Shown here one piece after another: positions 11,646-15,114 of a stretch of 64,000 nt of DNA; within the stretch, counting starts at the first letter, position 1; every line of letters starts with the position of its first letter. The notes under the pieces are model-generated. The model saw only the letters and a program-made list of their open reading frames with translations, made no database searches and was not told the DNA's origin. Both the position numbers and the translations under genes were made by a program. This stretch comes from an uncultured Rickettsiales bacterium (GTDB taxonomy: Bacteria > Myxococcota_A > UBA796 > UBA9615), in the NCBI GenBank assembly GCA_964344575.1, contig CAYFOA010000009.1, positions 8,458 through 72,457 on the forward strand, given 5' to 3'.

Positions 11646-11742
11646 GACGTGCGCGCACGGTGCGCGCCCCCCGCAGCAGGCCCGTCTTGCGCCCCCGGGT
11701 GACGCGACGTCCCCTTTCCAACGAGGATCTCCAAGTCGGCAC

Positions 11743-11758
11743 GGACGTTGAAACGTCC
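11743..11758. promoter_or_regulatory. Perfect 7-2-7 palindrome GGACGTT-ga-AACGTCC, with a third half-site GACGTCC at about 11707; putative operator upstream of the large orphan gene
   Basis: Read directly from 11701-11760. It lies about 55-70 nt upstream of the candidate starts of the downstream gene. Confidence 0.3.
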
Positions 11759-11811
11759 TCGAGCCGGCCCCATTCAAGTTTTCGCCCTTCGTGCCGACAA
11801 GGAAGTCCGCC

Positions 11812-14800
11812 GTGAGCGCAGCCCGCAGCAAGGTCACCCAGCCCGGGGCATCCGCCCCCCGCCCGAAGTCCGGCGGCAGCTTCAGCAGCCCCGCCGCGGG
11901 CCGATCGTTCGCCGAGGGGCTCGCCCTGCACTCGCCGCGGGCAGGCTCCGATCCCCTCCAGAAGAAGCCCTCCGGGGGCGGCGCCGGGAGCGCGGCGGAG
12001 GAGCCGCAGGAGTACACCTGCACCCTCGGCGGCGCCGCGTTCGACGTCACGGTCGACGCCGGCAAGCCCAAGAAGGCGTCGCTGCGCGGGTTCAAGCGGA
12101 CGTTCGGCGACCTCCGGATCGACAAGCTCAGCGGCACCCTCAGCCAGGGCGACCGCGGCCCCAAGGGGACGGTCCAGGGGACGGCGACGCTGCTCAAGAA
12201 GGGGAAGTGCAACGTCTCGGGCCGGTTCCAGGGGAGCCGCCTCGTGCTCGACGTCACCTTCGACGGCGCCCTCACGCTCGCCCGCGGCATGAAGGTCACG
12301 AACGCGACGATGCGTGTCGACGGGGAGCTGACGGGGAGCGGCGAGGCGAGCCTGGAGCTGCTCGACGCCACGGGCAGCACCGTCGCGGACGTGCACGTCG
12401 GCGCGGGCGGCGTGCTCAGCGCCGAGGCTCGCAACGTGCCCATCGACACGGCCGACGGGGTCGTCGGCGGCGCGGTCGACGTGCTCTACGACAAGCGCTC
12501 CGGCATCGAGGTCACCTCGGCGGGCCTCTGGGCGACGACGCCGTGGGGCGCGCGCGCCGAGCTCGAGGATCTCGAGCTGCGGAAGGGCCGGCTGCAGGGC
12601 AAGGCCAGGGTCCCGCTGGACGGCATCCCCGGCATGACCTTCGACGGCGACTCCACCGTCGAGCTGATGGTCGGGGCGGGCAGGTGCACGGGCAAGGTCG
12701 GGCCGCTGGGCTGGACGAGCACCGTCAACCCGGCGATGTCCGGCGACCTGAAGCTCACCTTCGACAGCAGCAAGGGGGCGTCGGGGCGGGCCGGCGCCAC
12801 CGTGCAGCACGGCGCGTCGCAGACGAAGCTCGCGTTCGACGACGTCGAGTACGTCGCCGGGCAGGGCCTCACCGGCGTCGCCAAGGTGGCCACCGAGCAC
12901 CTCGGCATCGACTGGACGGCGGCCCCGTTCGTGCGCTCCCTCAGCGGCGAGGCGACGGTCCGGCTGGAGCGCGGCGGCCTCGTCACCGGCGGCGGCGTGG
13001 CCAAGGCGGGGTTCACGTTCGGCGACGTCGCCATCGCGCTGGACGACATCGGCACGACGGGCCCGTCGGCGACGCTGACCGCGACCGTCACGAGCCTCGG
13101 CCCGAACGTCATCCTCGCGGCTCCCCTGGTCATCCAGGGCACGCATGCGGGCGGCGTCACGAAGTTCACCTCCGAGGGCGCCACGTTCTCGGTCGTGACC
13201 GCCGACGACCACACGATGCTCAACGGCGTGCTCGGCAAGACCGCGTTCGACGAGGCGGGCCTCATGACGAGCCTCGACCTCGACCTGTTCGCCGGACCCC
13301 TCGGCGAGGCGGTGGCCCACGCGGACGTCGTCGGGGGCGACCTGCAGAAGGCGTCGTTCGCGTTCGTGAACCCGGTCTTCGTCTACCCCGCGGGCAAGCC
13401 GATCCTGACCGGCACGTTCGGCCAGGCCGACATTGCCTACGACAAGGGCAGGTTCACGGGCGGCGTCGCGGGCACCGCCGAACTCGCCATCGAGGGGGCC
13501 GAGGGCGAAGCCGGCGCGATGCACTTCAGCGGCAACGCGAACACCAAGGACGGCTTCGACATGCGGGTCGAGGGCCAGAACCTGACGACGTCGCTGCTGA
13601 CGGTCGACACGTTCTTCCTCGAGATCAAGGACGGCGCCATCAGCTCGGACGTGCAGGCCACCGGCAGCCCGGACCTGCCCTTCGACGTGACCGGCTCGGT
13701 GTCGGGCTCCTTCAACGAGACCGGCCTGGCGCTCGCGGGCGGGCTCGACCTGTCGACGAAGCAGGGCTCGGTGCCCGACCTCGACGGGCACGTGGACGTC
13801 GGCTACTCGTCCGAGAAGGGCCTGTGGGCCAACGGCCAGGGCTCGGCGATCATCGACAAGGAGCGCAACTTCGTCGTGCAGGCGGCCATCGCGTACGGGG
13901 ACGGCTCGCTGTGGGTGTCGGCCCACGCCCGAGGCCTGTGGGAGGCGAAGAGCCCGCTCGTCGACGTCGCCGGCGTGATGGGCCCGAAGGTCGACAAGCT
14001 GAGCGGCAAGGTCACGATCCCCGTCGCGGGCGTACCCTACGTGCACGGCATGACGGCCGAGCTGAAGACGAAGGCGGGGCTGAAGATCGGCACCGACATC
14101 AGCGGCGTGTCCGTCGACGCGGGCATGCCCGCGTGGGACGCGCTGGGCGACAAGCCGCCGAAGATCGACGTCGGGGTGCAGTGGAAGGGGCGGCCCGTCG
14201 AGCTCGGCCTGGGCCTGCAGATGGCGGGTCAGATCAACGGCCACTTCGTCGCCGCGACCGTCGGCGTCGAGGTCATGGGCAAGGCCGGCTTCGACCTCGC
14301 GACGAAGGATCCGACGTTCCGCGCGGTCGGCTCGTGGGACGAGAACGGCGACGTGATCGGGGACCTCTTCGTCGACCTCCCGATGGTGCTCCAGATGTCC
14401 CCCGAGATGCGCTTCCGGGTGATGGCCGGCGGCGCCAAGTGGACGATGGGCGTGCCGGGCACCAAGGAGACGTGGAAGCCCGAACCGATCACGCTCAAGG
14501 AGCTCGACCCCCTGCACTTCGAGTGGCGCCTCGAGGACCTGCTGCGCGACGAGACGAAGCAGTCCGAGCCCGGCATGTACGGCCTCGGCGACCTGACCCA
14601 GCCCAAGGGCCTGGACACCCGGCGCGACCCCATCATCAAGGGCTTCATCGACCACAACCCGAAGCTCAAGAAGGTCGTCGACGCCATCCTCGGCTCCGTG
14701 CAGCTGTTCGACTACTCGCTGGAGGAGGGCGAGGCGTTCTACGAGTGGAACAGCGAGCTGCTGGCGCGCATGGCGGGCGGCGACTCGCTGGAGTCGGCGC

Positions 14801-15114
14801 AGCGGGAGTCCGAGTTCCTCGAGAAGATCCTGCGCGAGCAGAAGACGATCGCGCGCAACATCCCCCGCTACACCGAGAACATCCGCGCCCGCGCCGACCA
14901 GGCGGGCCACAGCGGCAAGCTCGGCGGACTCAAGAAGGCGGTCCAGGACCTGTACCACGCGCTCAACACGTTCGTGATCAACTGCCAGACCCTCGAAGGC
15001 CACTTCGGCCAGCCCATCGACAAGGTCTTCGAGCTGCAGATCAAGGTCGCCCGCGGTCAGGTCAACGAGCACCTCATGGCGCTGAAGGTGGCCATCGCCA
15101 AGGGGGCCGGCTGA
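11812..15114 (+). CDS. Large hypothetical protein (about 1100 aa; alternative GTG start at 11791)
   Basis: The long ORF has protein-like, non-biased composition. It is beta-rich with repetitive G/T/V strands, a Pro/Ser/Gly-rich disordered basic N-terminal 60 aa, and a helical C-terminus. There is no signal peptide and no catalytic motif I recognise. AAGGAAG precedes the GTG at 11812 by 6 nt. The overlapping ORFs 11748..15125 and 11635..15072(-) are Arg/Pro/Gly artefacts. Confidence 0.75.
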   Translation: MSAARSKVTQPGASAPRPKSGGSFSSPAAGRSFAEGLALHSPRAGSDPLQKKPSGGGAGSAAEEPQEYTCTLGGAAFDVTVDAGKPKKASLRGFKRTFGDLRIDKLSGTLSQGDRGPKGTVQGTATLLKKGKCNVSGRFQGSRLVLDVTFDGALTLARGMKVTNATMRVDGELTGSGEASLELLDATGSTVADVHVGAGGVLSAEARNVPIDTADGVVGGAVDVLYDKRSGIEVTSAGLWATTPWGARAELEDLELRKGRLQGKARVPLDGIPGMTFDGDSTVELMVGAGRCTGKVGPLGWTSTVNPAMSGDLKLTFDSSKGASGRAGATVQHGASQTKLAFDDVEYVAGQGLTGVAKVATEHLGIDWTAAPFVRSLSGEATVRLERGGLVTGGGVAKAGFTFGDVAIALDDIGTTGPSATLTATVTSLGPNVILAAPLVIQGTHAGGVTKFTSEGATFSVVTADDHTMLNGVLGKTAFDEAGLMTSLDLDLFAGPLGEAVAHADVVGGDLQKASFAFVNPVFVYPAGKPILTGTFGQADIAYDKGRFTGGVAGTAELAIEGAEGEAGAMHFSGNANTKDGFDMRVEGQNLTTSLLTVDTFFLEIKDGAISSDVQATGSPDLPFDVTGSVSGSFNETGLALAGGLDLSTKQGSVPDLDGHVDVGYSSEKGLWANGQGSAIIDKERNFVVQAAIAYGDGSLWVSAHARGLWEAKSPLVDVAGVMGPKVDKLSGKVTIPVAGVPYVHGMTAELKTKAGLKIGTDISGVSVDAGMPAWDALGDKPPKIDVGVQWKGRPVELGLGLQMAGQINGHFVAATVGVEVMGKAGFDLATKDPTFRAVGSWDENGDVIGDLFVDLPMVLQMSPEMRFRVMAGGAKWTMGVPGTKETWKPEPITLKELDPLHFEWRLEDLLRDETKQSEPGMYGLGDLTQPKGLDTRRDPIIKGFIDHNPKLKKVVDAILGSVQLFDYSLEEGEAFYEWNSELLARMAGGDSLESAQRESEFLEKILREQKTIARNIPRYTENIRARADQAGHSGKLGGLKKAVQDLYHALNTFVINCQTLEGHFGQPIDKVFELQIKVARGQVNEHLMALKVAIAKGAG

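Follow-up and report, generated by a model that had tools for sequence, protein, structure and literature searches.

By sequence comparison, the 1100-aa protein encoded in this window (the whole 64-kb stretch of DNA that was analysed, part of a 78-kb contig of a metagenome-assembled genome) belongs to a superfamily of giant, beta-rich proteins that is very rare and has no name; some of its members carry the domain DUF4157 (PF13699, eCIS_core, also known as PVC-metallopeptidase) behind the same disordered leader. The reading that we favour, tentatively and at somewhat short of an even chance, is that the protein may be a DUF4157-less effector or cargo with a possibly membrane-directed beta-sheet payload.

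The gene and the predicted layout of its product

Third-position GC was 0.97–1.00 (about 0.98) along the entire open reading frame, with GC1 exceeding GC2, and the frame is therefore coding on the plus strand. Its product is identical to a deposited 1100-aa protein (P0001). The gene, which the initial annotation had proposed as a protein-like ORF, is thus real. The open frame listed by ORF calling spans 11791 to 15114, and the GTG at 11812 is the best start given its Shine-Dalgarno sequence, its match to the deposited protein and the N-termini of homologues, which align from there. The neighbouring genes are housekeeping genes (gyrA, hemL), and no compositional anomaly was seen at the gene itself. 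It is probably transcribed from its own promoter; no promoter consensus was found near the palindrome described below. The gene had also been said to follow a TPR lipoprotein. The TPR repeats are there, but the lipoprotein part did not hold, as the lipoprotein-like segment of 13 residues lies 5′ of GTG 10902, the first canonical start, and would need CTG as its start.

The AF2 model (m05db1281d9cd) predicts a three-part layout, in which a disordered leader is followed by an antiparallel beta-hairpin body of ~840 residues and a four-helix C-terminal domain (Table 1). The first 60 aa are rich in S (20%), G (17%), A (17%) and P (12%) and have a net charge of +6. Disorder-promoting residues make up 80% of the leader, the highest value among the 27 window genes examined; disorder is here a proxy taken from composition and the AF2 structure, not a measure of loading itself. 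The body is dominated by G (14.8%), A (11%), V (9.6%), T (8.5%) and D (7.4%), with ~60 beta strands predicted across residues ~65–906, and pLDDT was 72.6 overall and about 85 over residues 65–710. Three of the predicted strands are very long (E747–776, E784–812 and E815–831; pLDDT 50–83), and apolar and polar residues alternate along them when read from the sequence. The C-terminal domain is modelled as helices H950–988, H993–1034, H1038–1063 and H1071–1096 (pLDDT 70–85), gave weak coiled-coil-like matches only against PDB profiles, and is joined to the body by a junction with conserved DP-containing motifs (ELDPLHFEW and RRDPIIKG..DHNP). Composition and prediction thus agree with the initial annotation, which had described a disordered basic Ser/Pro/Gly-rich N-terminal 60 aa, a G/T/V/D-rich beta-strand body and a helical C-terminus. 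It had also called the long segments repetitive, and this stood in part: BLAST found no internal repeats in the protein, but a cryptic hairpin motif (G.[VL]D[VL].[YWF][DSN]...G) occurs in three copies, compared to 0.08 in shuffles, and two blocks within the protein (residues 260–360 and 650–720) matched each other by hhalign (probability 76%, E 2e-5).

We found no transmembrane segment in the protein (the highest Kyte-Doolittle 19-residue mean, 1.49, lies inside the beta body) and no Sec/Tat signal peptide, with bulky hydrophobics at 14% of the first 50 aa and no hydrophobic stretch among them. The protein was without a match in Pfam, NCBIfam, PHROG, PADLOC and PDB sequences (family scan at E ≤ 0.01). 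With no hydrophobic N-terminus and zero enzyme-family matches, the earlier statement that signal peptide and enzymatic motif are both absent was confirmed.

Table 1. Features of the 1100-aa gene, its upstream region and its product, in window coordinates
Feature	Position	Strand	Remarks
Further GGACGT	11645–11650		Additional hexamer
Extra half-site GACGTCC	11706–11712		
Larger two-tier hairpin (GUCGGC...GCCGGC) enclosing the palindrome	11735–11768	+	RNA fold
Perfect palindrome GGACGTT-GA-AACGTCC, GGACGTTGAAACGTCC	11743–11758		54–69 nt 5′ of the start codon; proposed operator
Ribosome-binding site AAGGAAG	11799–11805	+	Read from sequence; 6 nt 5′ of GTG
Coding sequence, 1100-aa protein	11812–15114	+	GTG start, TGA stop
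Disordered basic Ser/Gly/Pro/Ala-rich leader, residues 1–63	11812–12000	+	pLDDT 24–31; proposed export/loading signal
Conserved leader motif SSPAAGRSFAEGLALHSPRAGSDPLQ, residues 25–50	11884–11961	+	Ends where the DUF4157 of L007 begins (deletion junction)
Beta-rich body, predicted antiparallel beta-hairpin meander, residues 65–906	12004–14529	+	AF2 model
Hairpin motif copy 1, GAVDVLYDKRSGI, residue 220	12469–12507	+	Motif count vs shuffles
Hairpin motif copy 2, GDLKLTFDSSKGA, residue 311	12742–12780	+	Motif count vs shuffles
Region homologous to the C-terminal part of 1700–2400-aa proteins, residues 435–986	13114–14769	+	hhalign
Hairpin motif copy 3, GHVDVGYSSEKGL, residue 659	13786–13824	+	Motif count; hhalign
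Three very long (17–30 residue) amphipathic Gly-rich strands, predicted, residues 747–831	14050–14304	+	AF2
C-terminal domain, four long predicted helices, residues 940–1096	14629–15099	+	AF2; conserved across the family

The upstream palindrome

The palindrome upstream of the gene is probably a chance occurrence or a local RNA/DNA hairpin. Together with its extra half-site it had been taken for a transcription-factor operator of the gene, and both elements are present in the sequence where they were reported. Several features would suit an operator: the palindrome is a perfect 7+7 one within an intergenic region of 166 nt and close to the start codon, four GGACGT/ACGTCC hexamers fall within 114 nt (~0.26 expected), and the larger hairpin around the palindrome folds at −17.8 kcal/mol (z = −2.59; equalled by 2 of 200 shuffles). 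However, these hexamers occur at 2.25 per kb in the window, so the half-sites cluster locally only weakly, if at all. Perfect 7+7 palindromes with spacers of 0–4 nt numbered 58 in the window against 74 ± 8 expected from Markov-1 simulations, a class that is neither enriched nor beyond chance, and the palindrome pattern with up to three mismatches matched only itself (4.1 matches expected). We found no second copy in the 64 kb of genome searched and none in 14 related loci, the upstream regions of homologues did not align, and no regulator gene is adjacent to the palindrome. Its absence from other promoters within these 64 kb weakens the operator idea, and we consider an operator at this site very unlikely.

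Relatives and the link to DUF4157

When 1.84 billion representatives were searched exhaustively with HMMER, 19 related clusters were returned, and three proteins were found among 5.8 billion. Because these clusters of relatives exist, the description of the protein as an orphan is strictly wrong, though it is still true that the beta-rich body has no named family. One relative, L007, shares 56% identity with the 1100-aa protein. By N-terminal alignment the leader is conserved with those of L001, L008 and L007, and a leader HMM picked up family members only. The C-terminal helical domain is likewise kept across the family. The gene neighbourhoods of the relatives differ from one another. Other carrier assemblies are GCA_041687695.1, GCA_054034095.1 and GCA_019307545.1.

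PF13699 is present in seven related proteins, among them L007 (E 5.6e-17), P0011, P0016, P0022, P0023 and P0026, and an eighth relative, P0018, has DUF4157 in an ORF that overlaps the 5′ end of its gene. L007 has the same leader and then DUF4157, which is cleanly missing from the 1100-aa protein: in the N-terminal alignment, ...SPRAGSDPLQ of the window protein is paired with ...SPRGGG...GGSPLPGR of L007, the first residues of its PF13699 match. The ~79-residue domain with its HExxH motif, and thus the HELTH core, is absent from the 1100-aa protein, PF13699 gave no match to it, and a purpose-built DUF4157 HMM detected the domain in none of the six-frame ORFs of the 64-kb window. Further along the protein, a profile-profile comparison with hhalign (alignment A3 vs A8) linked it to the C-terminal part of proteins of 1700–2400 aa with a probability of 99.3% (E 1.8e-20, 503 columns). 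Four of the five proteins in the latter alignment carry one or two DUF4157 domains (P0016, P0022, P0023 and P0026), and the fifth has DUF4157 in an overlapping upstream ORF. The canonical leader motif LQRxxGNxAVxxLL lies upstream of the domain in 57/76 generic DUF4157 proteins. A motif HMM did not detect it in the leader of the 1100-aa protein and scored P0010 (TVGNAAVAQ, 10 bits); setting AAGRSFAEGLAL against VGNAAVAQGLVA gives a positional alignment only.

Possible roles of the protein

DUF4157 has been described as an eCIS core domain, found N-terminal to toxins with some linkers >1000 aa (PMC8213781), a description that fits the family of the 1100-aa protein. [quoted passage not shown] CIS cargo fills the tube lumen (PMC8894135), and loading needs the NTD, with DUF4157 being dispensable (bioRxiv 10.64898/2026.05.27.728243). 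Since relatives have DUF4157 behind the same disordered leader, the suggestion that the protein could be an effector or cargo is favoured among the three guesses of the initial annotation. The homology to DUF4157 proteins, the lack of a Sec/Tat signal or transmembrane segment and the most disorder-prone N-terminus in the window all favour it as well. The protein would then be cargo of a contractile injection system, either an extracellular CIS or a related machine of the phage-tail type, whose genes would lie elsewhere in the genome. Its 63-residue leader would be the loading signal recognised by the machine, DUF4157 would have been lost, as would be tolerable if it were dispensable for loading as in AlgoCIS, and the beta body and helical domain would be the payload. 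Locally, the amphipathic sheets look like those of membrane beta-barrels and lipid-binding beta-belts, and the most likely activity of that payload would therefore be one on membranes or lipids in the target cell, possibly pore formation.

Cargo of known machines offers the closest parallels. A disordered leader, an optional DUF4157 and a large C-terminal payload make up the experimentally defined CIS cargo layout of AlgoCIS Cgo1 and Cgo2, and Cgo2 (1228 aa), which we liken to the 1100-aa protein by layout and size, also has no Sec signal. Homologues of the protein carry DUF4157 at the position expected from eCIS toxins. In contrast to those toxins, the 1100-aa protein is without DUF4157 and its HExxH motif, no toxin domain can be recognised in the beta-hairpin body that would be its payload, and its C-terminal domain is conserved rather than variable. 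The setting also speaks against cargo: the surroundings are housekeeping, the canonical leader motif went undetected, and no CIS operon lies within ten genes. CIS genes for sheath, tube, baseplate, spike or AAA+ proteins were not found in the 64-kb window, nor were T6SS genes, and the co-occurrence with T6SS or outer-membrane-exchange loci that had been raised earlier was not seen nearby in the window. Around relatives in 10 other gene neighbourhoods (checked: L001, L004/L008 counted once, L007, L009, L010, L012, L014, L015, L016, L017 and L018), neither CIS nor T6SS genes turned up among the family-matched neighbours up to 10 kb away, or as far as the contig reached.

This absence of secretion-system genes from every neighbourhood examined would be expected if the protein instead stayed inside the cell, as a cytoskeletal, storage or scaffold beta-protein whose ancestor was fused by chance to the zincin-like peptidase domain DUF4157. 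The lack of any kind of classical secretion signal agrees with such a role, as does the presence of DUF4157 outside CIS-bearing taxa, including bacteria not known to have a CIS, for example in mycobacterial Rv2189c (PMC12067865). We nevertheless think an intracellular role unlikely. Experimentally defined cargo shows the same order of parts as this family (disordered leader, DUF4157, large C-terminal body), and the rare, patchy distribution and variable neighbourhoods of the family are typical of accessory effector genes. Moreover, the gene of L007 shares 1 nt with the start of a class-3 lipase gene. The lipase, too, has no signal peptide and begins with a similar disordered Gly/Pro/Arg leader (“MGGAR...”), so that it and L007 look like an effector pair.

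Somewhat less probable still is a structural protein of the envelope or of lipid handling, unrelated to injection machines, in which an AsmA/TamB/LptD-like or ApoB-like sheet would bind or transport lipid or line the membrane of the producer cell. The top Foldseek PDB matches were LptD (E 1e-5), the ApoB100 beta-belt (probability 0.97), SlpA, ushers and BamA/EspP, and the long amphipathic antiparallel strands are common to the protein, to LptD and AsmA-TamB proteins (beta-jellyroll, beta-taco or beta-barrel) and to the ApoB100 beta-belt. These matches had TM-scores of 0.06–0.15, however, which is generic beta-meander similarity, and the AsmA, AsmA_2, TamB (DUF490) and LptD Pfam models gave zero matches even at E ≤ 10 across 14 family members. 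An identity as AsmA/TamB or a known polymorphic toxin, which the initial annotation had named as the match that would remove the novelty, was not found. The housekeeping neighbourhood and the adjoining TPR protein with its lipoprotein-like segment would suit an envelope function, and P0010 likewise has a TPR protein in front of it, but the two TPR neighbours are not homologous to each other and the neighbourhoods of relatives all differ. The N-terminus, polar and disordered, has neither a membrane anchor nor a signal peptide that could take the protein to the envelope, the disordered leader and helical C-terminal domain are not features of LptD, AsmA-TamB or ApoB100, and an envelope role leaves both the recurrent DUF4157 fusion and the disordered leader unexplained.

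A shell like those of Rhs/YD-repeat proteins and Tc-toxin BC cocoons, with beta hairpins enclosing a helical C-terminal toxin for polymorphic-toxin delivery, is highly improbable: a large hairpin-repeat body before a ~150-aa C-terminal domain is a comparable layout, conserved DP-containing motifs lie at the junction, and the recurrent hairpin motif ([YWF]-[DSN]-x3-G-[LIA], seen as G.VDV.YD...GL three times) is reminiscent of YD repeats, but its spacing differs from YDxxGRL, RHS_repeat/Rhs-core had no match at E ≤ 10 in the 14 members, Rhs, Tc and teneurin structures were absent from the top 50 Foldseek matches, the C-terminal domain is not polymorphic across the family, and no immunity-like gene follows, with hemL directly downstream after 20 nt.

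In its furthest form, which we hold to be improbable, the cargo reading would make the protein a payload of a new kind, delivered by phage-tail-like machines or by some unrecognised Sec-independent route in which the disordered leader is read. A giant amphipathic beta-sheet would refold in the target and insert into or coat membranes, as a beta-barrel or beta-belt pore or as a lipid-binding toxin. The gene would be a stand-alone cargo gene far from its machine, and DUF4157, as an optional accessory, would have been dropped in this lineage.

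A DUF4157-linked beta-rich protein

We assign the window protein (1100 aa, deposited as P0001) with high confidence to a rare superfamily of giant beta-rich proteins that is linked to DUF4157; the protein itself has no DUF4157 domain. As the initial annotation had described, a basic leader precedes a beta-rich body and a helical C-terminus, with no signal peptide. The leader, composed largely of Ser, Gly, Ala and Pro, carries a net charge of +6; no hydrophobic segment of the transmembrane or signal-peptide type was found in the protein. The leader is disordered in the AlphaFold2 model (pLDDT 24-31), and this N-terminus is the most disorder-prone among the 27 window genes. 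The body has a high content of G, A, V, T and D and approximately 60 predicted beta strands across residues 66-906. An earlier AlphaFold2 model from 3 sequences was too poor for use (pLDDT 43.8); the model from 14 sequences reached a mean pLDDT of 72.6, about 85 at residues 65-710, with a pTM of 0.42, and its three parts are listed in the table. The description of the strand-like segments as repetitive was not borne out by BLAST, which detected no internal repeats. Using hhalign, the body gave a weak match to itself (76%), and a cryptic hairpin motif, G-x-[VL]-D-[VL]-x-[YWF]-[DSN]-x3-G, occurs in 3 copies versus 0.08 expected. The protein was unmatched in Pfam and NCBIfam, in PHROGs, in PADLOC and, by single query and profile alike, among PDB sequences, and a BFVD structure search returned nothing meaningful.

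The homologue encoded at locus L007 is 1354 aa long and 56% identical to the window protein, and it carries Pfam eCIS_core/DUF4157 at residues 80-143 (E = 5.6e-17), including an HELTH motif. When the N-termini were aligned, the window leader (MSAARSKVTQPG...SSPAAGRSFAEGLALHSPRAGSDPLQ) corresponded to the L007 leader up to the first DUF4157 residues (GGSPLPGR...); past this junction, about 130 residues of the L007 protein, DUF4157 included, have no counterpart in the window protein or in its relatives at L001 and L008. DUF4157 was also found in the related proteins P0011 and P0016, in two copies each in P0022, P0023 and P0026, and, for P0018, in an ORF that overlaps its 5' end. We performed a profile-profile comparison of the window family (A3) with five proteins of 1700-2400 aa (A8), four of which contain DUF4157, the fifth being P0018 with its overlapping upstream ORF. 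The profiles matched with 99.3% probability (E = 1.8e-20) in an alignment of 503 columns that covers residues 435-986 of the window protein. The beta body, together with the first part of the helical domain, thus makes up a conserved module that recurs behind DUF4157.

The arrangement of DUF4157 varies among these relatives. At L017, the ORF with DUF4157 overlaps the called start of P0018 in a different frame, reflecting either a frameshifted fusion or a split DUF4157/beta-body gene pair. For this stretch the gene caller instead reported a 362-aa gene on the minus strand. The top-scoring DUF4157 copy of P0023 lies close to its C-terminus (residues 1603-1676), and in P0022, P0023 and P0026 a large unannotated globular region separates DUF4157 from the beta module.

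A word-indexed search of 5.8 billion proteins returned, besides the protein itself, just two metagenomic proteins (64-65% identity), and exhaustive HMMER across 1.84 billion cluster representatives gave 19 hits. Two loci, L007 and L008, turned up in a scan of species-representative genomes. These results point to a real family of extreme rarity. Further word-indexed searches yielded 2 proteins only with a 14-sequence profile, and generic short DUF4157 proteins only with the L007 leader and DUF4157 as query. No relatives were found in one scan of metagenome contigs or two scans of viral contigs, and the broader family alignments held no stretch conserved enough for scanning. An HMM of the leader detected no further protein sharing it in the window or the related loci.

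Coordinates of features in the window, in related loci and in the window protein
Feature	Sequence	Position	Strand	Remark
1020-aa protein	Window	5184-8246	+	Between gyrB and gyrA
Lipoprotein-type signal, in frame with TPR gene	Window	10830-10901	+	5' of first ATG/GTG/TTG (10902)
Half-site hexamers	Window	11645; 11707		At most 100 nt from palindrome
Hairpin enclosing palindrome	Window	11735-11768		-17.8 kcal/mol, z = -2.6
Palindrome GGACGTTGAAACGTCC	Window	11743-11758
Target gene	Window	11812-15114	+	GTG start
99-aa ORF	Window	16446-16745	+	Overlaps toxin gene on its 5' side
AbiEii-type nucleotidyltransferase toxin	Window	16726-17376	+	Just after hemL
GGACGT-N11-ACGTCC	Window	20445-20467
c-di-GMP-I riboswitch (RF01051)	Window	46661-46748	+	44.9 bits vs gathering score 35
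332-aa ORF	Window	46760-47758		Directly 3' of riboswitch; no Pfam match
Class-3 lipase (PF01764)	L007	4428-6161	+
DUF4157 ORF	L017	1-2112	+	E = 6e-20, own HMM
P0018, as called	L017	1079-6580
Continuous antiparallel hairpin meander	Window protein	Residues 65-906		AlphaFold2; body
Three very long amphipathic Gly-rich strands	Window protein	Residues 747-831		AlphaFold2
Four-helix C-terminal domain	Window protein	Residues 950-1096		AlphaFold2; four long helices

The gene and its surroundings

The ORF, open from 11791 to 15114 in a window of about 72% GC, is coding: the third codon position is 97-100% G+C over its full length, with GC1 above GC2, and the frame signal switches precisely where the ORF meets the upstream TPR gene on one side and downstream hemL on the other. 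We place the start at GTG 11812 because AAGGAAG lies 6 nt upstream, P0001 is exactly the 1100-aa product from this codon, and the alignment of homologues begins at the residue it encodes. The window is an origin-proximal housekeeping block in the order dnaN, recF, gyrB, a 1020-aa ArsA/BagB-like ATPase, gyrA, the TPR protein, the target gene, hemL, an AbiEii toxin module, and further metabolic and repair genes. The 99-aa ORF beside the toxin gene is likely its antitoxin, and the position of this pair just past hemL suggests that, past gyrA, the block holds a small accessory island. The gene neighbourhoods of relatives all differ, with aldolase and SRPBCC genes flanking the gene at L001, L004 and L008 and different neighbours in the remaining relatives; the gene behaves like a stand-alone, mobile accessory gene.

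Several neighbouring features were recorded. The upstream gene had been described as encoding a TPR lipoprotein, and this was partly supported: a lipoprotein-like segment exists in frame, but it lies 5' of the first canonical start, the only codons able to start it being CTG 10830 and 10866. This leaves two options: initiation at a non-canonical codon, or a truncated deposited annotation. A conserved TPR partner was rejected because the TPR neighbour of the related protein P0010 is unrelated to the window TPR protein. The 1020-aa protein, an unusual occupant of the gyrB-gyrA interval, comprises about 630 N-terminal residues without a family match and an ArsA/GET3/BagB-like ATPase domain (NF053621 BagB, E = 8.6e-85, below cut-off). 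The loci of homologues encode FGE-sulfatase Ser/Thr kinases and a sigma-54 activator, and the window encodes MopE/Kelch proteins. The "uncultured Rickettsiales" label of the L007 and L008 contigs fits poorly with approximately 72% GC and the gene content and is probably wrong; we infer a Myxococcota-like gene content.

The palindrome upstream of the gene is present as initially annotated; its proposed role as a transcription-factor operator is distinctly doubtful. Slightly in favor are its nesting in a larger hairpin and two additional half-site hexamers nearby, but this hexamer is common (2.25 per kb), and no sigma-70 promoter or intrinsic terminator was found in 11400-12000. Perfect 7+7 palindromes with a spacer of 0-4 nt number 58 in the window versus 74 +/- 8 in first-order Markov simulations, and the pattern with up to 3 mismatches has 1 match versus 4.1 expected. 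The search for a regulon, which the operator idea had called for, found no other site in the window or in 14 related loci, and the upstream regions of homologous genes did not align with the palindrome region. The only other inverted half-site pair in the window (see table) is spaced differently. No Rfam element was found near the target gene.

Possible functions of the protein

To our knowledge, no other group contributes as many predicted cargo proteins of contractile injection systems (CIS) as DUF4157 proteins do, and their linkers of more than 1000 aa have never been characterised. Such linkers are on record, and DUF4157 belongs to the core domains of extracellular CIS (eCIS) loci, for which it is highly specific (PMC8213781). 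It occurs in 36% of eCIS-associated toxins versus 0.06% of other proteins, and about half of predicted eCIS toxins carry it, most of those without a further annotated domain (PMC11297309). [quoted passage not shown] The window protein has exactly this form of NTD and CTD with DUF4157 optional. For PVC, MAC and AlgoCIS, cargo pairs whose leaders are alike have been described (bioRxiv 10.64898/2026.05.27.728243). At L007, the start of a class-3 lipase gene overlaps the end of the DUF4157-bearing homologue gene by 1 nt, and the lipase, which lacks a signal peptide, has a disordered Gly/Pro/Arg-rich leader of about 70 residues starting MGGAR; the two resemble such pairs, a further hint at cargo. 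A sigma-54 enhancer-binding protein, a transglutaminase-elicitor/HHH protein and a Big_2/CARDB protein are encoded 3' of the lipase, and the homologue, lipase and downstream genes together may be an effector cassette.

Our preferred, though tentative, reading is that the window protein serves a contractile-injection-type machine as cargo or effector, independently of Sec. The machine would be encoded elsewhere than the target locus; loading would be signalled by the leader, with the beta/helical body as payload, conjecturally with membrane-directed activity. Several findings argue against cargo. No sheath, tube, baseplate, VgrG/PAAR, T6SS or DUF4157 genes occur in the 64-kb window, nor do CIS genes in 10 other, mutually different neighbourhoods of relatives. 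The window protein itself lacks DUF4157 and the canonical GNxAV leader motif, as defined on the generic short DUF4157 proteins retrieved with the L007 leader and DUF4157, and DUF4157 is present too in organisms without a known CIS (PMC12067865).

An intracellular function unrelated to injection is unlikely. Rather less probable is a lipid- or envelope-handling beta-sheet protein: Foldseek against the PDB returned LptD, the ApoB100 beta-belt, SlpA, ushers, BamA/EspP and VDAC, all with TM <= 0.15, a resemblance to amphipathic membrane- or lipid-associated beta sheets and not family membership. An Rhs-like shell is very improbable. AsmA, TamB and RHS profiles gave no match even at E <= 10 across 14 family members; the AsmA/TamB kinship named initially as grounds for denying novelty was not found.

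DUF4157-family putative effectors with long "linkers" are already known; new here are the absence of the defining domain, the orphan locus, and a conserved beta-hairpin body without a named family or solved relative. The window protein is a useful starting point for work on an effector module that is uncharacterised, rather than a demonstrated new system. It represents a natural DUF4157-deletion variant of a giant long-linker protein, and it shows this "linker" to be a conserved, foldable beta-hairpin domain (AlphaFold2 pLDDT about 85 over 650 residues). The domain forms a rare superfamily and is retained where DUF4157 is lacking and no injection operon lies close by. If the protein is not cargo, it warns that effector prediction by DUF4157 over-reaches. 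If it is cargo, it would back the experiments in which loading depended on the disordered leader and not on DUF4157, and would indicate a new membrane-directed payload type relevant to engineered protein delivery.
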